DNA of 64,000 nt, counting the filler, from Asterionella formosa (taxonomy: Eukaryota): assembly GCA_002256025.1 (NCBI GenBank). It is 15 parts of 15 records of this genome, joined end to end, with 100 filler letters (N's around TTAATTAATTAA, not from the genome) between each part and the next. Parts side by side here need not be neighbours in the genome. Positions count along the whole stretch, not along the records: positions 1 to 22,396 come from NKIB01002752.1; 14 more parts are not named here. The stretch is one strand, 5' to 3'. Every line of letters starts with the position of its first letter. Position 1 is the first letter of the stretch. Shown one piece after another: positions 1-55,200 of the stretch. Under the pieces are notes generated by a model. The model did not search any database, was not told where the DNA came from, and worked only from the letters and a program-made list of their open reading frames with translations. The position numbers and the translations under genes were made by a program.

Positions 1-466
1 ATGTAGATTCTAAGTGAGCAAGTAAGGTCAGAACAGTGATGTCTGCATATCCAAATGTAGCATCTTCCAGAACGTTGTAGTAGGTTGGGTCAATGGCTGT
101 TAGAATTTGTTGTCGGAGAATTTCACGGATTTGGGAGTAACGGCGGAATGCGTCAAGGGAGGTGTCAAAGAGACGGTTGGCAGCAGTGATTTGGGACTGT
201 GTTGCAGTAGTACTGTGTGGCGGCTGGATGCCGGGATGTTTGGGCGGTACAAAGGGTTCACCGGCACGTAAGAGATAAGGCGCAGCAGCCATGACAATAC
301 CAAGGAAACCATTGGCACCACCACCACTGGTACAGTGGACAGAGCGAGCGTTGGCAAAGAGTTCCTTGCGAAGGCGGGTTACAGTGAAGGCTGTAGGTTT
401 GCCCTCGATCGGCGTCAAGAGCGGATGAGGGAATGGGAAAACAGCGGAAACGATTGGAGTCGTCAT
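1..466 (-). CDS. gag: Gag N-terminus of a diatom Copia-type (CoDi-like) LTR retrotransposon, running off the window start
   Basis: Not in the ORF track (no stop in window). Manual translation from ATG at 466: MTTPIVSAVFPFPHPLLTPIEGKPTAFTVTRLRKELFANARSVHCTSGGGANGFLGIV...QILTAIDPTYYNVLEDATFGYADITVLTLLAHLEST, open to base 1; resembles from memory the FPHPxLTxIxGxP...ANAxSV...GGGxxGxLG pattern of diatom LTR-retrotransposon gag. Confidence 0.75.
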   Translation of the reverse strand, partial: MTTPIVSAVFPFPHPLLTPIEGKPTAFTVTRLRKELFANARSVHCTSGGGANGFLGIVMAAAPYLLRAGEPFVPPKHPGIQPPHSTTATQSQITAANRLFDTSLDAFRRYSQIREILRQQILTAIDPTYYNVLEDATFGYADITVLTLLAHLEST

Positions 467-613
467 GGTGGAAGAAGGCCTGAGAGACAGGGACAGCGAA
501 CGGGCAAGCGGTGCTGGACGGTTGATTGTTGAGACCAGTGCTGGTTTGCACTGTCGACAAAACCCGCAACTTCGCAGGTGCGGACAAGAGAGAAAGAACA
601 GATATTGTAGTTC

Positions 614-780
614 TGTTGAGGGGAACCTTATCGTGAATAAAGGTGAACTACAATATTATGACTATTCTATTGCTGTTCCAAGTACATCGTTGTTAGCACT
701 CACGCATGTACCTAATCTGGTGGCTGCGCCGGTATGGTTTGTACGGCGCATGTATGGAGCATCATATGCAGATATTAACA
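614..780 (-). mobile_element. Putative 5' LTR (167 bp) of the Copia-like element
   Basis: Minus strand begins TGTTAATATC (780) and ends CCCCTCAACA (614): TGTT...AACA inverted termini, ~150 bp upstream of the gag ATG. Second LTR is not in the window. Confidence 0.6.
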
Positions 781-1120
781 TACAGGTGGACTACATGGTA
801 CCTGGTACCTGGTAACTGGGTGTAGTAACAATGCTATGATACTTACAGTACCCGGTAGCAGGTACCGGACCTACTCTAATTCCGGTATATACCGGGAACA
901 CTGTACCGGTAGTCTACCTAGTTGTTTTCAGTATGTAGAGTTGCCCATCTGAATGACTGATTATAAAGGGGACAAGTGTGGACAGGGGTGTTCCAGCGAT
1001 GAATTTGTATCTAAAAATTACAATGATTTTGACCATCATGAAATCGATTTCTGACAAAAAAAAACGTGGATGCATATGTACCAGGTAGTATACCAGGTTG
1101 CCAGCATTGCTGATACTGGT

Positions 1121-3999: not shown

Positions 4000-6900
4000 A
4001 TGGAAGACGTTTCGACGATTCCTTCCAATGATGGATCAACTTCTGGTGAGCTTTTGGATGACACGAATCCTAATAGTACTAATAGAAGTATCCATCATGA
4101 TGATGATGATGATGATGGTCTGCAGGTGCACGAGCTTCTGTCAGATCATGAAGAAGAAGAAGAAGAAGAACAACAACAGCTAGAGATGAATCAGAGACAA
4201 GGGGACATGACAGCAACAACATTATCAACACGTGAGCAAGCCAATGATGATTGTCTCACTGCAACAACAACAACAACAACAACAACATTGCCATCTCCAC
4301 AGGTGGCAGTAGCTGTAGCAGCACCAACCACTGCCCATGTCTCAGCATTGCCAACAAAGGAAGACTTTTTGCGAAATGAAGCGAATCCTCCTCTCGTTAC
4401 TGCTACACTTGTTCCATTGGGTAATGATTCAATGCATGAGAATGATGCTATTCCTGTTAATGTACAAACTCTGGGACCTCATACAGTCGTTTCAACAACT
4501 AATCCCACTACTACTACAACTGTTGCGGATCAATGTCAGGCTCCACAAATAGATCTTTCGCAACAGACACTACTTCATCCACCCCTGGAACAACATACGA
4601 CTGTTCCTGAACCACGACAAATTTCGGATAGAGATTTAATTCGTGTATATGTAGACGATGACGGCTACAATGATCATGGCAGTGCAATGCCACCAGTATT
4701 AAGGGAGAGCAAGAATTTGAAATCGGAGGCCATTATGTCAATGACTTGGAAAAAAATTGCCTGCATTTCCATCCTCATTATATTCTTCATACTAATTGCC
4801 TTGGTAACTGGGATAAGTATTTCCAAACATGACAAACAGAATAATAATATCAACATTACAACGACAACAGCACCAACAACTACAGCATCACCTTCCCTGG
4901 CACCATCTTGCGTGCAAGGATTTCATCGAGCATGGACATTGGCTAACATAACGTCACTATCCTTGCCAGCTCTTGTTGTTGCTGCGGACTCGTATGATTC
5001 GTCCAGGACACTTGGTGTAGTGCCAAATTACAATATATTTACCGACAATTTCACATTCCACACCTTTGTATGGACTGAAAGTGGTGGCACTGAAGTGGAA
5101 ATCATTCAGCAATTTCAAGATTCTTTGGAAATTCAGGCTTTGGTACTAAGTGATGATGGTGCAACCCTTGTGGCTGGTGTCCATTCCTATTTTGAAGTAT
5201 CCGATGGAACTGTGGGTGGAGCCTTTCTTATATTCAAGCGTTTGAATCATTCCACCTTGACTTGGAATTTAACGCATGTACAACGGACAGATGGGGATAT
5301 CTATGGAACTGTCTTTGATGTAGCTGTTAGTTCTGATGGTTCAACTGTGGCTGTATCGGCTGGGCTGTTGGCAGACGTGTCACTGTCGTTTGGTGTTAGT
5401 GTCTATCGTGTCTCAGAGATTGGATTAGAACTCATGGGAAATACACTTTTGGAAAACCTGGTCGGTGACACCAAAATAGAGCTATCTGGAGATGGCACGC
5501 GGTTGTTTCTAACGACGGCTGATTCAAGACTACAGATTTTTGATTTTTCAATCGCATATGGATGGACCGTCACTAAAGAGTTCATTTTTGAAGGAAGCAA
5601 CCCAGTAATTCAAGTATCTCGGGATGGAGATATTCTTGCTATTGGAAACGACAACTGGTATCCTGTCAAGGTTTATGCACTTATGGATGGGAAGTGGGAC
5701 ACCATGGACTCGGTGGGACGCGTTGATCAAGATTCCTACAACTTCAAATTCTCACTCTCCAAGGATGGTAACAACCTGTTTCTGAGCGGGATATTTTCGG
5801 GAAATGGGACTCAAAATGTCATGGGAGAATGGTTCCGACGAGGATCGAATGGCTTTCAGGCGATTTCTTCAGTCACAATCCCTGGAACCTCCATTATAAA
5901 TGTCTTTTTCAATGAACAAGCCTCGCAATTGCTGTTTGCGACTGATTTTGGTTTGACGGGGTTTGAGCGCATTTGTGCTTCGTCAATTGTTGGTGGCTTT
6001 TCTGTCCCCATGGCCCCAGTTCAAACACAGCCAACCAACTCCCCGGCACCGACAGGTTGCATTTCAGGTTTAGAGTATGGCTGGTATAATTACAGAACGA
6101 AGGAGATTGATTCCGACCCATTTCTTGATCCGCTCATATCGATTTCTAAAGACGGATCAACATTAGTTATTGCCCGTACCCTCTACAACGCCAGCACCAT
6201 TCGCTTCGCAACTTTCGACGTGTCTTCGAACCGTACGTCGCTTGAGAGCGAGATTCGCTTGACGCAGTCACAATGTCGACTTCACGACATGGACATTTCC
6301 GGGGACGGTCGAACTCTCTTGTTCGGTGTCGACTCGTATCTCCAGGCAGATGGCACTATTGGTGGTGCCTTTCTGGTGTACCATCGGTCCAACGCTTCTT
6401 GGGCTGTTCATGCCATTATTGAGACTGGAGGAGGCGTGTTGGGAGCAGTTTTCGATGTGTCGATCAGTGATGATGGTGCCGTGGTTGCTTTTTCTGCCGG
6501 TGAAATAAATGGGAGCTCCTATGCCGACGTCTACGCAGTCGAAGACAAAGGGTTATTCCACATCAATGAACAAGGCTTTCCAAGGGATCCTGGAGATGGT
6601 AGTAACAATCTCATTGGAAACAACACGTTCGTCTCCAAGCTTCCAACACGTGACTTCACGCAGATCAGTCTGTCTGGAAGTGGCAGCCGGCTCTTCATAA
6701 TAGCCACTACTGGTGCTATTCGATCATTTGACTTTGACAGCGGTTGCGCGTGTTGGACTCAAATTGGCCAATCAGTTTTTATTTTATCGGAAGCCAAGCT
6801 TCATGTTTCTTTCGACGGAAACACAATAGTAAACGGGATCAAGTACCTTCCAATCACAATTTATGATTTCATTGGAGAGTATTGGGAAATGCGGGAGTCG

Positions 6901-7278
6901 TCAAGTTATTTAGACGACAAAGAAAATGAGTCCTCTGCACAAATCGCTCTGTCCAGTGATGGTCAATCCATTTTTGTCGCCCGAACGTACGATAGTCTTG
7001 AAGTTCGCAATGTTTCGGGCAGCAACCTGGATATCATTTGGAATCAAGTCACCGACTTTGTCGATGAAATTTTCAATACAACTGTACCTTCTTGGAACAA
7101 TCTATACTCTGTGGGTCAATTCTACAAGACATCTCAAGAGGGATCTGGCTTTCTTCAAGTCGAAACCAATTTGCCTTTGTTGCCTGGAGTCGTACAACAA
7201 ACAACCCTTACTGGGAACGGAAACCTTTTTGTTGTAACCAATGAGACAGTTTCTTTTTACCAAAATTCATGTGCATGA
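4000..7278 (+). CDS. Type II membrane protein with two duplicated beta-propeller-like (WD40/FG-GAP-like) ectodomains
   Basis: 1092-aa ORF; disordered N-terminus, one TM (IACISILIIFFILIALVTGI), APT/SPS linkers, recurring (L/I)SxDGxxLxV blades; internal duplication (DGTVGGAFLIF vs DGTIGGAFLVY). Confidence 0.8.
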   Translation: MEDVSTIPSNDGSTSGELLDDTNPNSTNRSIHHDDDDDDGLQVHELLSDHEEEEEEEQQQLEMNQRQGDMTATTLSTREQANDDCLTATTTTTTTTLPSPQVAVAVAAPTTAHVSALPTKEDFLRNEANPPLVTATLVPLGNDSMHENDAIPVNVQTLGPHTVVSTTNPTTTTTVADQCQAPQIDLSQQTLLHPPLEQHTTVPEPRQISDRDLIRVYVDDDGYNDHGSAMPPVLRESKNLKSEAIMSMTWKKIACISILIIFFILIALVTGISISKHDKQNNNINITTTTAPTTTASPSLAPSCVQGFHRAWTLANITSLSLPALVVAADSYDSSRTLGVVPNYNIFTDNFTFHTFVWTESGGTEVEIIQQFQDSLEIQALVLSDDGATLVAGVHSYFEVSDGTVGGAFLIFKRLNHSTLTWNLTHVQRTDGDIYGTVFDVAVSSDGSTVAVSAGLLADVSLSFGVSVYRVSEIGLELMGNTLLENLVGDTKIELSGDGTRLFLTTADSRLQIFDFSIAYGWTVTKEFIFEGSNPVIQVSRDGDILAIGNDNWYPVKVYALMDGKWDTMDSVGRVDQDSYNFKFSLSKDGNNLFLSGIFSGNGTQNVMGEWFRRGSNGFQAISSVTIPGTSIINVFFNEQASQLLFATDFGLTGFERICASSIVGGFSVPMAPVQTQPTNSPAPTGCISGLEYGWYNYRTKEIDSDPFLDPLISISKDGSTLVIARTLYNASTIRFATFDVSSNRTSLESEIRLTQSQCRLHDMDISGDGRTLLFGVDSYLQADGTIGGAFLVYHRSNASWAVHAIIETGGGVLGAVFDVSISDDGAVVAFSAGEINGSSYADVYAVEDKGLFHINEQGFPRDPGDGSNNLIGNNTFVSKLPTRDFTQISLSGSGSRLFIIATTGAIRSFDFDSGCACWTQIGQSVFILSEAKLHVSFDGNTIVNGIKYLPITIYDFIGEYWEMRESSSYLDDKENESSAQIALSSDGQSIFVARTYDSLEVRNVSGSNLDIIWNQVTDFVDEIFNTTVPSWNNLYSVGQFYKTSQEGSGFLQVETNLPLLPGVVQQTTLTGNGNLFVVTNETVSFYQNSCA

Positions 7279-44647: not shown

Positions 44648-44878
44648 CATCTAAGCCGCGAAATATGCCACTTTTCGAAATTTCGTCTACGTATGAGTGT
44701 TAATTATGTGGTACTTCACATGCATTAATGCCACTCTTCACGTAAAAAAGATTACTTTTAACGGTTTCATGTGAAGTTTTAACTGTTTCATGTGAAGTTT
44801 TAACTGTTTCATGTGAAGTTTTCACAATGAATTTTGAACGCGAGACTGAATTAGTTGATGTTTCAAATAATTCATTTG
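44648..44878 (+). repeat. Repeat-family left end with internal 21-bp minisatellite (x3); near-identical copy at 49178-49304
   Basis: 127 bp shared; ttttaac(g/t)gtttcatgtgaag tandem units. Confidence 0.8.
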
Positions 44879-46457: not shown

Positions 46458-47829
46458 TCACCAACCACAGACGAGTTTGCGAATAGCTGTAAATTTCTCA
46501 GCAACAAGACCTTTGGTAAAAATGTCGGCGGGGTTGACTGCAGTGTCAATTTTTAGGATGCGTAGCACGCCAGATAGGACATATTCACGGAACCAATGGT
46601 AAGAAACAGCAATGTGCTTGGTACGGGGAGTCATTTTTGGAAGATTGGCTTGGGAAAGACATGCACTGTTGTCTTCATAAATGGTAGAGTAAGAAGTAAC
46701 AGCAAGAGGGCTGGCCATGTGAATTGCAGTGGAAGCCTCAGTAATGATGTGGCGAAGGGGAATGAGGTCACGGCAGCTAGTGGAGAGCGCCTGGTATTCA
46801 GCCTGCATGGTAGAAAGGGCGATTGTGGTTTGTAGTTTAGAAACCCATAAAACGGCACAGCCAGCAAGAGTAATGACATAGCCAGTGCGGGATTTGGCGC
46901 AAACGGGATCATTCGAGTTTTCAGTTCCAAAAAGACCAGCAAAGTCACTATCGACAAAACAGTCGATTTTAAACTCCGATGTAGGTGTAAAAATGATACC
47001 CTCGTTTAAAGTACCACACAAATAACGGCAAATTTTCTTAAGAGCCACTTCATGTGAGGCACGCGGACAGTGAGAAAATCGAGCACACTGGTGCACAGCG
47101 AAGGCAATGTCTGGGCGAGAGTTTGTTGATAAGTAGAGGAGCATGCCCACAACAGAGCGGTAGTTCCATGATTCACGGGCAGGAAGACCATTAGAATCAG
47201 TACCTAACGGTTCTCGTGTTGCAGGAGTAGGGGAGGAAGACCCGTGAACAAGACCAGTAGTTTCTAAGATCCGTGTGATAAGTCCCAGTTGTGTTAACTT
47301 GAGGGAACCAGTAAGCGATGACCTGTCAATTTGGATGCCCAAAAACGAGGCAAGGTCGCCCTCACGAGTAAGTTCAAGCTCGAGGGACAAATTGGTAATC
47401 ATGGCATCAATAAGGGACTTGTCCCGACCGATGAGAATGGAGTCATCGACATAGTTAAGGTATACCATATCAGCATGGATAAAAAAACAGGGGTCAAGCT
47501 CAGATTGGCGGAACCCGCGATGTTCAAGACACTCTTTAAGTTTAAGAAACCAGGTACGCGGGGCCTGTTTTGTACCATAGAGAGATTTATTCAGCTTCAT
47601 GACCATGTCACGACCTTGAAGGTCACCGAAGTCTTTGGGCGTCTCAACATAGAGTTCTTCTGTAATGTCGGCCTGACAAAATGCATTCGAAAAATCAATT
47701 TGTTGTGTCTCAAGGCCCAGAACCACGGACATGACCAAAAGCGCACGGACAGTAGACCACTGGACCACAGGGGCATAGGTTTCAAAATAGTCAATACCTT
47801 CCTTCTGTAGATCCCCGCGTACACAAAAC
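46458..47829 (-). mobile_element. Ty1/Copia pol fragment (RT + RNase H)
   Basis: IDFSNAF, LYGTKQAPR, YVDD, DSDFAG, RTKHI, ADIFTK. Confidence 0.95.
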
Positions 47830-49404
47830 NNNNNNNNNNNNNNNNNNNNNNNNNNNNNNNNNNNNNNNNNNNNTTAATTAATTAANNNNNNNNNNNNNNN
47901 NNNNNNNNNNNNNNNNNNNNNNNNNNNNNTTCCAGGGTTTGATGCTGGTGGGAGAATGCGTATTGGTGGCCAGTAAATAGGATAATATAGCATAGTTGGG
48001 ATGAATGGATTGATGTATTTTTGATGGGGCTGTAGAATGAACAACACATTACAGCTTAGCAATTAAGATTGTTCTATATTGAAAGTTTACTGAACTATTT
48101 GCAAATGATGGTGGCAATTATTTGCAAGAATTAAAAAATCAAAATATGAATACATTATGCCAGTATATATATTTATATTTTATGGATAAAAAGAATTAAA
48201 AATATTGTCTCTCGTGATTGCTACAGACGATTGCTGGGGTTTTTGGATTGGGAGGTTTCCCCCTGATCTCAATCCTGAGCGAGTGTCAAGATTCCTTATT
48301 CCAGAAATCTCCTCGTTTACATGGGCATGCATTTCATTCTAGCTATGAATGTACAGAAGTGAAAATTGCTGCCGGGATGTACTAATGCATCATTTGAACA
48401 TACTGGTACACAACATCTATGTTCTATATACACAAATATTTATACATCATAGTATGTACAATGATTCGAACATGAGAAATTTTCCATTACTAGCTTTAAA
48501 CAGACCATGATAAAAAAATGATTTTTAATTTTGTACAACTACTTAACACTTTTATTAGTTTCTTAGATAGAAGAGAAGTATCACCAGCCTTTAGAGGAAG
48601 TGTTGGCATAGCTTTGATATTCATGCAAAATAGCTAAAATTGAAAATCGGCAGAAGCAAAATAAATGTTGCTCAACCAGACCTATATATCTACCACTTCC
48701 TACCTGATTCTTCTTCTCCTTCTCTTCTTCAGACTCATTTTTCTCGCATATCACTACATGATCAGCAAGTTGTGCGTATTTTGACTTGCTATGACCCCAA
48801 TACCACTGGTATGCTCATTTTCTGTTAAATAAGCCATACCATGCAGGTACCTCCACAGAGATCAACAAGATCTCAACCATATTTTTTTTGTTCTACTACT
48901 CAATGGACATTCCTTCATTATCTTTCCTCATGTCTGGCAATACTCCTGACCTCCTGGCCCTCTTCCTATACTGGTCATCTGTGTACTAGAAGCTTGCTTC
49001 TGGCCTTTCCTCACTTTACTCATTTGCCAACTAGAATTCAAGTCACATAATTGAAAATATCAGTTTTGCCACCCAAATTTACATCCATTCCTTTCCTTTA
49101 ACTTCACTCACTACATTCAATACTGCTTTCCAGCCACTTGATTTCTACAATCTACTAGCTTGCTAATCTACCACCTTCATCTAAGACGCGAAATACGCCA
49201 CTTTTCGAAATTTCGTCTACGTATGAGTGTTAATTATGTGGTACTTCACATGCATTAATGCCACTCTTCACGTAAAAAAGATTACTTTTAACGGTTTCAT
49301 GTGANNNNNNNNNNNNNNNNNNNNNNNNNNNNNNNNNNNNNNNNNNNNTTAATTAATTAANNNNNNNNNNNNNNNNNNNNNNNNNNNNNNNNNNNNNNNN
49401 NNNN

Positions 49405-50779: not shown

Positions 50780-51005
50780 NNNNNNNNNNNNNNNNNNNNN
50801 NNNNNNNNNNNNNNNNNNNNNNNTTAATTAATTAANNNNNNNNNNNNNNNNNNNNNNNNNNNNNNNNNNNNNNNNNNNNTTGTCAATGTATGTATTCATA
50901 TAACCCGTAGATTATAGGATAACTCCAAGTTCTTCACTTTGCTTGCTATATTCCCTCAATAATCAGGACAAGAAGTATAACAACCAATTATCTTTGGGTA
51001 CCAGG

Positions 51006-52253
51006 TGAAGTATCTAACTAGAAGTAGTAGTATTTGTTGAATATATGAGCTTATTAATTAATCCTTATGTATAACTCATTTCCTGAACTGACATCAAAAG
51101 TATAGAATGGGTGTTAGTCGAGTTCTCTCATTATTGAATTCCGATATATTTGACATAACCCCAACTCTATATATATCTGTATCGATGTGCAGGATTGCTC
51201 ACTCTCCCACACTTGAGGGAAAACCTTTTACCTATGAAAAGGTTTGATACGACGAATATTAATTCGTTCGGTAATATGCATAGTGCGTTGAAAAGTAACT
51301 GTACCATTGGCATGTACTTGAATAATAGTATAAGGACCTCGTCCACGATCATCCAAAGTAGTAGGATTATCCAATAATATTAAAATCTCGTCACCCACTT
51401 TGTAATCATAAGATCGACGACGGAAATTTGCACGACGTAAACGTTCGTCAATTATCACCTGTCGACGTTGATGTATTAATTGTAAATCTGTAATCAAAGG
51501 AATATTTAATATCATATCACGTTGGAAAACCCATGCTCCTGGTGAAATACGTAATATACTATGAATAGTAGCTCGAGCTGCATATGACGCAGCTGCAAAA
51601 CATGTATCCACAATATTTTGGGCTTGAAATTCATTGATTGGAGGATGAGCCTTTAACATAACTCGTAGACTATTGCTGATAGATTGATGGAAACGTTCAC
51701 AGATAGCATTTGCTTGTGGATTCTTTACTGTGGTAGTCACATCTTTGATTCCATTCAATACTAACATGTGTAAGAAAGGAGCACCAGTAAATTCACCTCC
51801 ATTGTCATGTATACAACGTTCTGGACGGGGATATCTGGCTAACCAATCATTTTCAAATTTCATTGCAATATATTCTGATGTTTTATTGATGATACGTGAA
51901 ATTTCTGCTAAATTGGTGACTGTGTCAATACAAGTTAGAGCACGAAATTCAATCGTTTGAGCAGCCACTGTTATCTTCCATGGACCAATTAGATCTACTG
52001 CGACTTCTGACCATGGTAATAATAATGCATTCCTGGGTGGAAGTTCACCAAAACCAGTACCAGGTAATTTTGTACGTTGACATGCTTCACATACTCTTAC
52101 AATATGTTCCACTCTTGTTTTTAATATAGGGTGATAAAAATGTGTAGCAATTGTAGCATTTAATCTTGTCATACCCACATGAGCTAACATCTGATGATAC
52201 CAATTAATAATAGGATCCAATAATGATGTAGGAATAGCAATACGCCAAGTATC
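51006..52253 (-). mobile_element. Gypsy 3' end, copy 1: integrase (stop 51228) + 196-bp LTR (51006-51201)
   Basis: HHCC finger, D(VDLIG)-D(HDNGGEF)-E(ERFH), GPY motif; PPT gggagag then TGAG...TTCA. Confidence 0.92.
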
Positions 52254-53500: not shown

Positions 53501-53952
53501 AGATTTCCCTTATAATGGACCTAAGTAAATATCTTTAGTTCTACAGGATAGCGCACATTTTTCTAAGATGTATTAATATGACAATTATTTCCATCTTGTG
53601 AAAAATGAGAGAGTTCTTCACCTCGCAAGAAAAACGCGACTTCATGTTGTTATCGGCGATCTCAATTTCGTTGTCATTATTAGTGTTATTACTTTACTTC
53701 TTTTACGATTGTATTTTCCATGTCGTNNNNNNNNNNNNNNNNNNNNNNNNNNNNNNNNNNNNNNNNNNNNTTAATTAATTAANNNNNNNNNNNNNNNNNN
53801 NNNNNNNNNNNNNNNNNNNNNNNNNNCAATCTCACCTTGTTTGTACAAGACGTGTTATTGCATACTCAACATCACCTACAGGTACCGGTACCAACATCAC
53901 CTTGCTTGTTTGTATGAGAAGAACGTGTGATTGTTGCGTACCAGGTACCTGG

Positions 53953-55200
53953 TGAAGTATCTAACTAGAAGTAGTAGTATTTGTTGAATATATGAGCTTA
54001 TTAATTAATCCTTATGTATAACTCATTTCCTGAACTGACATCAAAAGTATAGAATGGGTGTTAGTCGAGTTCTCTCATTATTGAATTCCGATATATTTGA
54101 CATAACCCCAACTCTATATATATCTGTATCGATGTGCAGGATTGCTCACTCTCCCACACTTGAGGGAAAACCTTTTACCTATGAAAAGGTTTGATACGAC
54201 GAATATTAATTCGTTCGGTAATATGCATAGTGCGTTGAAAAGTAACTGTACCATTGGCATGTACTTGAATAATAGTATAAGGACCTCGTCCACGATCATC
54301 CAAAGTAGTAGGATTATCCAATAATATTAAAATCTCGTCACCCACTTTGTAATCATAAGATCGACGACGGAAATTTGCACGACGTAAACGTTCGTCAATT
54401 ATCACCTGTCGACGTTGATGTATTAATTGTAAATCTGTAATCAAAGGAATATTTAATATCATATCACGTTGGAAAACCCATGCTCCTGGTGAAATACGTA
54501 ATATACTATGAATAGTAGCTCGAGCTGCATATGACGCAGCTGCAAAACATGTATCCACAATATTTTGGGCTTGAAATTCATTGATTGGAGGATGAGCCTT
54601 TAACATAACTCGTAGACTATTGCTGATAGATTGATGGAAACGTTCACAGATAGCATTTGCTTGTGGATTCTTTACTGTGGTAGTCACATCTTTGATTCCA
54701 TTCAATACTAACATGTGTAAGAAAGGAGCACCAGTAAATTCACCTCCATTGTCATGTATACAACGTTCTGGACGGGGATATCTGGCTAACCAATCATTTT
54801 CAAATTTCATTGCAATATATTCTGATGTTTTATTGATGATACGTGAAATTTCTGCTAAATTGGTGACTGTGTCAATACAAGTTAGAGCACGAAATTCAAT
54901 CGTTTGAGCAGCCACTGTTATCTTCCATGGACCAATTAGATCTACTGCGACTTCTGACCATGGTAATAATAATGCATTCCTGGGTGGAAGTTCACCAAAA
55001 CCAGTACCAGGTAATTTTGTACGTTGACATGCTTCACATACTCTTACAATATGTTCCACTCTTGTTTTTAATATAGGGTGATAAAAATGTGTAGCAATTG
55101 TAGCATTTAATCTTGTCATACCCACATGAGCTAACATCTGATGATACCAATTAATAATAGGATCCAATAATGATGTAGGAATAGCAATACGCCAAGTATC
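53953..55200 (-). mobile_element. Gypsy 3' end, copy 2 (LTR 53953-54148)
   Basis: Same sequence as copy 1 by eye, different flank. Confidence 0.92.

Follow-up and report, generated by a model that had tools for sequence, protein, structure and literature searches.

Self-priming of reverse transcription in long terminal repeat (LTR) retrotransposons has been established experimentally only for Tf1 of Schizosaccharomyces pombe, as far as the account in PMC7175516 goes; elsewhere it has been recognized from pattern matches within single genomes. Tf1 RNA folds back on itself, is cut by RNase H and then primes from its own 5′ end (PMC7175516). Self-priming has been predicted for the Tf1/sushi and Tcn1 groups of Gypsy elements (PMC6317226) and, in the Copia superfamily, for 89% of 203 elements of the plant TAR lineage, which includes Houba and Osr-1 (PMC6317226, supplementary file 3). 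Here we describe a Ty1/copia-like element in a 64,000-nucleotide (nt) stretch of the Asterionella formosa assembly GCA_002256025.1 (referred to as the window; positions 1-22,396 are from NKIB01002752.1). Judged from its sequence, reverse transcription of this element is probably self-primed in the manner of Tf1. The mechanism is known and already predicted in Copia; what is new is the host group, the clade and the evidence from covariation. Full-text searches of the literature returned no report of self-priming in diatoms or Phaeodactylum, only passing co-mentions. The initial annotation of this locus knew of no self-priming in the lineage of its gag, which agrees with our searches for diatom Copia elements but not for Copia at large, where TAR is a predicted case.

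The element is on the minus strand, with its 5′ LTR beginning at position 780, and is cut off by the start of the window. Contigs of four public runs (X1, X4, X9 and X18, of which X1 is a DNA and X18 an RNA library) were aligned to window positions 1-1100, and a metagenome scan provided three contigs (L001, L002 and L003) carrying the same element at 98-99% identity. The features central to the proposal are as follows:

614..780, minus strand: 5′ LTR of 167 nt, TGTTAA...TCAACA (from upstream contexts, contig ends and X1 depth)
645..656, minus strand: upstream arm ATATTGTAGTTC, proposed self-primer with its 3′ end at C645 after cleavage (from the inverted repeat and fold)
614..644, minus strand: loop of 31 nt, the remainder of the R region together with U5, and candidate template of a very short minus-strand strong-stop DNA (from the fold)
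602..613, minus strand: downstream arm GAACTACAATAT at the primer-binding site (PBS) position, beginning with the first base past the LTR (from the inverted repeat and contig ends)
657..661, minus strand: TCATA, an initiator-like TCAH(+1)W motif with a predicted start at 658 (from a motif match)

The LTR (780-614) was delimited at both ends. Its start, TGTTAATATC at 780, is set by three differing upstream contexts: the flank in the window, the flank in L003 and an internal purine tract, GGTGAGGGTG, in L001 and L002. Aligned contigs diverge at this position in X1, X4, X9 and X18 (29, 1, 1 and 9 contigs, respectively); in X4, X9 and the X1 consensus (agreement 0.61), the loose ends read as the purine tract in reverse complement, and the nine loose ends in X18 are diverse (agreement 0.43). 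At the other end, 17 X1 and four X18 contigs match from 614 upward and diverge below it into unlike flanks (agreement 0.45 and 0.6, respectively), and these loose ends resemble junctions of a 3′ LTR or solo LTR with flanking DNA. X1 depth approximately doubles over 593-777 relative to 1-592. Minor loose ends occur at 613 (one record), 596 (two) and 586 (four). Because the boundary at 614 was mapped without use of the hairpin, the 12-mer at 613-602 can be said to adjoin the LTR. The LTR stops at 614 and does not extend past 602, so the boundary drawn in the initial annotation was correct. Separately, above position 676, five X1 contigs (agreement 0.88) and two X18 contigs carry other sequence while matching the window below it; this divergence may mark a subfamily or a recombinant with another U3.

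On the minus strand, ATATTGTAGTTC at 656-645 is followed, 31 nt later, by its exact reverse complement, GAACTACAATAT, at 613-602. The 12 base pairs (bp) are perfect and the stem cannot be extended at either end, A644 standing opposite A614 and A657 opposite C601; pairing stops exactly at the mapped LTR end. The complementarity, the loop length and the coincidence of stem and LTR boundary had all been claimed from the sequence, and all three stand. The absence of a TGG-type PBS was likewise confirmed: TGG does not occur within 70 nt past the LTR end, the first instance on the same strand lying approximately 70 nt on. The 55-nt RNA folds at -14.5 kcal/mol, compared with -4.44 +/- 1.86 for dinucleotide shuffles (200 per hairpin here and below), giving a z score of -5.41 with none of the 200 equalling it, and the hairpin still forms in a fold of 214 nt. 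Only 15 of the 64,000 window positions, 613 among them, have a 12-mer with its exact reverse complement in the 170 nt upstream. The upstream arm is identical in four copies, and none of the four aligned runs has a variant in it at 10% or more of depth. A second stem in the loop, claimed earlier as imperfect, does exist, although the letters given for it were wrong: the fold places ACCUUUAU/AUAAGGU at 643-637/631-626, with 5 bp stacked on the main stem. The aligned contigs carry common variants in the loop at 630 and 633. A 7-bp extension of the main stem (668-662 with 601-595, past a 5-nt bulge) was considered as a conserved structure and rejected, as the relatives described below mismatch outside their stems.

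Relatives were sought by scanning a pol alignment (A7) against prokaryote genome contigs, which yielded nine loci (L004-L012), all filed in bacterial bins. A complete LTR-to-gag junction, running from the end of pol or the 5′ flank into gag, is present in three of these: L004 (a circular overlap, 1-141 = 5312-5452), L009 and L008. The junction is missing from L005, L006, L010 and L011, and L012 is a 90-amino-acid (aa) piece of pol only. The gag products of L004, L009 and L008 are 35, 28 and 34% identical to that of the window element, and their pol products are approximately 48-56% identical. Each complete junction contains exactly one perfect inverted repeat of at least 9 bp, with its second arm directly after an LTR-like ...CA/TA end. 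The hairpins of the four elements compared are:

Window element: ATATTGTAGTTC / GAACTACAATAT; stem 12 bp, loop 31 nt, LTR end ...CTCAACA
L004: ATGTAAATC / GATTTACAT; stem 9 bp, loop 40 nt, LTR end ...GTTCAATA
L009: TTAATTATTTACGTC / GACGTAAATAATTAA; stem 15 bp, loop 54 nt, LTR end ...ATCTTCA
L008: AATCGAAATAGTC / GACTATTTCGATT; stem 13 bp, loop 46 nt, LTR end ...TCTCAACA

All 49 stem pairs in the four elements are Watson-Crick. At the nine positions common to them, every one of the 36 cells pairs, and both sides change at seven of the nine; the first two pairs (G-C and A-T) are invariant. This table was computed by script with positions counted from the LTR boundary, a MAFFT alignment having left the hairpin arms out of register. 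The hairpins of the three relatives fold with z scores of -4.27, -4.53 and -2.94, with 0, 0 and 1 of 200 shuffles as good. As background, 106 of 127,054 positions have a 9-mer that is perfectly complementary to a segment 20-80 nt upstream. Where the purine tract fixes the LTR start (the window element, L004 and L009), the start of the hairpin's second arm is one of only 2-4 LTR ends consistent with terminal inverted repeats among 250-300 positions (at 167, 186 and 313, respectively). None of the four post-LTR sequences starts with TGG within 0-5 nt; those of the relatives begin GATTTA, GACGTA and GACTAT. Complementarity of LTR and PBS is kept, with covarying sequence, in all three relatives with a complete junction, as had been proposed in the initial annotation as a check.

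Other scans did not extend this set. No relative was found among viral contigs with gag alignments A1 and A4 or with pol alignment A7, or among prokaryote genome contigs with gag alignment A5, and a search for further copies in the five bins behind L004, L007, L008, L009 and L012 returned the same loci only. The L004-L012 loci, evidently eukaryotic elements, sit in bacterial or cyanobacterial bins, and one related protein (P0191) is named for Marinobacter shengliensis; prokaryote assemblies thus appear to be contaminated by algal repeats.

Taken as a primer and its binding site, the two arms suggest the following route. The element RNA, starting at approximately 658, would fold back so that 656-645 pairs with 613-602, the first 12 nt past the LTR. 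By analogy with S. pombe Tf1, the element's RNase H would then cleave the RNA on the 3′ side of C645, and the freed 3′ OH would prime minus-strand synthesis over the 31 nt of U5 and R. The PBS of each new copy would be copied from the primer, which would keep the arms perfectly complementary; such copying in each cycle would account for the perfection of all 49 pairs. The conserved ...UC end of the primer facing GA may reflect specificity of cleavage or initiation. Under a published rule for self-primers (a segment of the 5′ LTR, 10 bp or longer, that is complementary to a region whose first base lies 0-5 bp past that LTR, as given in PMC6317226), the window element qualifies with 12 bp at an offset of 0 bp; L009, L008 and L004 have 15, 13 and 9 bp, all at an offset of 0 bp from the predicted LTR end. 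The predicted start rests on a TCAHW initiator-like motif that has been proposed for diatoms (PMC4686930). TCATA is the only such motif in the LTR of the window element, with its +1 position 2 nt before the upstream arm; in the window element, L004, L009 and L008 the +1 lies at -2, -5, 0 and -2 nt from that arm, respectively.

The mapped boundary, the perfect pairing and the covarying relatives together support the self-priming geometry claimed for this locus, and we regard it as the likely reading. For the clade of diatom Ty1/copia-like elements as a whole, copying without a host tRNA, by Tf1-like self-priming from the RNA start, is somewhat more likely than not. Several points weigh against these readings. 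Transcript start, RNA cleavage, priming and strand transfer over a short R are steps that we infer. The TCAHW motif was found by eye, is degenerate and occurs in 68% of 80-nt upstream regions in the diatom work that proposed it (PMC4686930), and it is weak evidence for a start. One RNA contig (X9 record 25) crosses the LTR into pol, and the contigs show neither a start nor a poly(A) site. A start near 658 would leave R and U5 with 45 nt and strong-stop DNA with 31 nt, which would be a short R for the first strand transfer. Within the family, the 12 stem pairs are invariant in all four near-identical copies, so covariation is absent at that level. The inner stem, which resembles the U5-IR stem of Tf1, is weak and polymorphic, the common variant at 630 (also present in L001) disrupting a further pair, and it has no common counterpart in the folds of the relatives. 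As for the relatives, the LTR ends in L004, L009 and L008 were placed from terminal inverted repeats and likeness to the window element, not from flanks; the 22.7-kb locus of L008 lacks a second LTR; and the stem of L004, at 9 bp, misses the published minimum of 10 bp by one pair. In L007 only 177 nt precede gag; they contain no inverted repeat reaching 8 bp, and the LTR may lie off the contig. Finally, Pfam matches on pol fall below curated cut-offs (25.7 against 27, and 21 against 31.6 for RVT_2).

The explanation that competes best with self-priming, while still improbable, is that the hairpin is conserved in another capacity, as a leader structure involved in packaging, dimerisation, translation control or suppression of 5′ polyadenylation, and that the element is primed by an unrecognised host RNA or at an unconventional site. 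Covariation proves a constrained structure and says nothing about its function; fungal GalEa elements, also Copia, lack a PBS and have a conserved hairpin whose role there is unknown (PMC5445492); and 45 nt of R and U5 is short for strand transfer. However, the second arm begins at the first post-LTR base in all four elements, which is the place required for the 3′ end of a primer, and there is no alternative PBS, TGG being absent both from the 0-5 nt interval in the four elements and from the longer interval given above for the window element. An ordinary structural stem would also tolerate G-U pairs and mismatches, and none is seen in the 49 pairs.

Far less probable is that the 12-mer binds an internal piece of a host tRNA as primer (a half-tRNA, as in copia, Osser and Bianca) and that its copy in the LTR is incidental. 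In favour of this, the complement of the PBS in the window element ends in GTTC, which resembles the consensus start of a tRNA T-loop. The window holds no tRNA gene, and Rfam gave no match at the gathering score in the window or L001 and two chance-level rows at E values up to 5 on 400-900. Half-tRNA primers are known in Ty1/copia lineages only, among those treated in PMC6317226. With a tRNA primer, whole or half, related elements should share one PBS and the LTR would need no copy of it; the PBS sequences of the four elements all differ and each has its match in the LTR of the same element, evidence against a shared tRNA or tRNA fragment. The resemblance of ...GTTC to a T-arm was itself rejected, as the upstream arms of the relatives end in AATC, CGTC and AGTC. 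A chance inverted repeat or an assembly artefact at a repeat boundary can be practically dismissed: the arms are AT-rich, short inverted repeats are not rare (54 nine-mer positions in the window) and the window has scaffold gaps elsewhere, but the same hairpin sequence is found in three independent metagenome contigs and in contigs of all four runs, the position-specific chance of such a 12-mer is approximately 2 in 10,000, and the geometry is repeated in three relatives.

The remaining features of the element and its surroundings in the window are:

467..601, minus strand: untranslated leader of 135 nt, in which 601-595 can pair with 668-662 (from the fold; the relatives lack this pairing)
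2..466, minus strand: first 155 codons of gag, the open reading frame (ORF) leaving the window (98% identity to the 362-aa protein P0001)
662..780, minus strand: LTR stretch whose 3′ copy codes for the final 39 residues of pol and a TAG stop at 664-662 (from the metagenome contigs)
781..1100, no strand assigned: host flank upstream of the insertion (fully covered by X1 only, of the four aligned runs)

In L001 and in L002 the two ends of the contig are identical (1-392 = 5419-5810 in L001 and 1-739 = 5407-6145 in L002), so both are collapsed circles with one LTR and an internal part, approximately 5.4 kb, which gives the element a full length of approximately 5.6 kb. The window itself has no second copy or 3′ LTR, only chance matches of up to 31 nt. 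The layout is an LTR of 167 nt, a gag of 362 aa, a TGA codon and in-frame protease (PR), integrase (INT), reverse transcriptase (RT) and RNase H (RH) domains, with the end of pol 118 nt inside the 3′ LTR; this extension makes most of U3 coding too. In L004 the pol stop codon falls within the upstream arm, and in L009 pol stops approximately 26 nt into the LTR. A single TGA closes gag (1289-1291 in L001), and pol continues in the same frame with the protease DSG motif 33 codons on, in all three metagenome copies; this arrangement suggests stop-codon readthrough.

Along pol, the motif order is a DSG protease, the DDE integrase core, SH3_retrovirus (367-423), RVT_2 (840-956), VVDD and an RNase H tail. 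The integrase precedes RVT_2 and RNase H, which is the Copia order. Many pol homologs carry a precomputed PF07727 match, and a search of the Atlas with the RT-RH part gave 30 hits, every one an RVT_2 set. Named homologs of pol belong to diatoms, namely Fragilaria crotonensis, Cylindrotheca closterium, Nitzschia inconspicua and Fistulifera solaris. A sequence search of the Protein Data Bank (PDB) with pol gave one chance row only (E value 0.098).

The gag product is less easily placed by sequence: P0001 has no Pfam family even at E values up to 10, and its own family has 4452 cluster representatives at an E value of 0.001 or less. The nearest Atlas cluster is 89% Eukaryota and most commonly Bacillariophyta, the phylum being known for only nine of its members. 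An AlphaFold model of gag (mean pLDDT 89.6) aligns with the Drosophila Copia capsid 8vvw_A over 182 of 184 residues (Z 12.6, root-mean-square deviation [rmsd] 6.3) and with chains of the Ty1 capsid C-terminal domain (CA-CTD) over 88-91 residues (Z 10.0-10.7, rmsd 2.3-2.6); Foldseek alone gave E values of 0.3 or weaker. As modelled, the gag has a Copia/Ty1-type capsid fold. Near its C-terminus (approximately residues 300-330 of P0001), a motif YCWTHG...H.S..C...GH is nearly invariant in 60 sequences and replaces the canonical CCHC knuckle; zf-CCHC is present in 21% of the members of one related Atlas cluster. The pol order, the RVT_2 and diatom homologs and the capsid match agree with the earlier assignment to a diatom Copia-like group, and by sequence the element is an intact-type Ty1/copia-like LTR retrotransposon of a diatom family.

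The part of the element in the window (1-780) was detected in 20 of the 24 runs listed, from 15 studies that include freshwater, lake, estuary and marine metagenomes; six of the runs are RNA. From X1, 8545 contigs align to the 1100 nt, and X1 alone covers most of this interval with the host flank (share 0.87). Over the flank (781-1100), X18 coverage is thin and reaches approximately 960, and X4 and X9 do not go past 814. Copy and variant numbers are very high, and the element is present in RNA libraries.

Elsewhere in the window, a second LTR-like pair (44648-44774 and 49178-49304) consists of two 127-nt copies that are 98% identical and 4530 nt apart. An RT-like ORF between them (46458-47768, minus strand) is 22% identical to pol of the element described above. 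The pair adjoins runs of N with TTAATTAATTAA linkers and its boundaries are uncertain; after the upstream copy, the sequence ...GATGAAGGTGGTAGATTAGC is a possible TGG-type PBS. A 300-nt direct repeat (50997-51296 and 53944-54243) has a spacing of 2947 nt and 100% identity between its copies, and resembles a tandem duplication of recent date; the copies overlap minus-strand ORFs of 330 aa each (51228-52220 and 54175-55167). A plus-strand ORF at 4000-7278 encodes 1092 aa; its product has low-complexity stretches rich in threonine and acidic residues, and a putative membrane segment.

A self-primed retrotransposon no longer depends on a host tRNA. With its mapped boundary and covariation, this element is among the cleaner computational cases, and the first found for diatoms. 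If the reading is right, it would apply to a clade whose abundance allows assembly from metagenomes and metatranscriptomes of freshwater, estuarine and marine origin. Diatom Copia elements are activated by stress, and they shape diatom genomes (PMC2806351). Phaeodactylum is transformable (PMC4686930), so the prediction of self-priming is directly testable. For annotation of the clade, the PBS can be sought by taking the LTR segment downstream of a TCAHW motif and looking for its reverse complement, and the work also flags diatom elements as contaminants of prokaryotic genome bins.

With respect to previously described diatom elements, the window element resembles the CoDi elements (Blackbeard, Surcouf and others; Maumus et al. 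2009), which are approximately 5-6 kb in length with zero or one stop between gag and pol and, in most groups, a non-canonical gag (PMC2806351). The main text of the CoDi paper is silent on priming: tRNA does not occur there, and PBS appears only as the name of a buffer (PMC2806351). Fungal GalEa elements are similar in that they, too, have no tRNA PBS and carry a conserved hairpin in its place, but that hairpin has no complement in the LTR or U5 and its authors rejected the Tf1 model in the text concerned (PMC5445492). One arm of the diatom hairpin lies inside the LTR, and the elements were for this reason not assigned to the GalEa 'Conserved Hairpin Site' group.

Likeness to Tf1/Tf2 and to the Tf1/sushi and Tcn1 groups lies in the lack of a tRNA PBS and in LTR-adjacent bases complementary to a segment at the presumed transcript start; this segment is 11 nt in Tf1 and 9-15 nt in the diatom elements. 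Unlike Tf1, the window element has integrase before RT, an RVT_2-type polymerase, a Copia/Ty1-like capsid and no chromodomain that we could see; the host is a stramenopile alga, and the evidence in diatoms is computational only. Tf1 also requires an inner U5-IR-like stem, and such a stem is unconserved in the diatom elements. Membership of the Tf1/sushi clade was rejected, as that clade has the order PR-RT-RH-INT plus a chromodomain and here the integrase precedes RVT_2. From the +1 offsets and the arm and loop lengths, R and U5 of the diatom elements would together span approximately 45-69 nt; if self-priming is correct, this, a strong-stop DNA of approximately 31-54 nt and a conserved ...UC-3′ primer end opposite GA would be distinctive of the clade.

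The TAR elements resemble the window element in that they belong to the Copia superfamily and self-priming in them was predicted by the same rule under which the window element qualifies. In contrast to TAR, which is found in land plants, pairing in the diatom elements is backed also by covariation in four divergent elements and by the conserved GA/UC terminal dinucleotide. If the diatom elements are indeed self-primed, hairpin priming would, with Tf1/sushi, Tcn1 and TAR also counted, be a recurrent or perhaps ancestral trait, present in both LTR superfamilies and in three eukaryotic supergroups.

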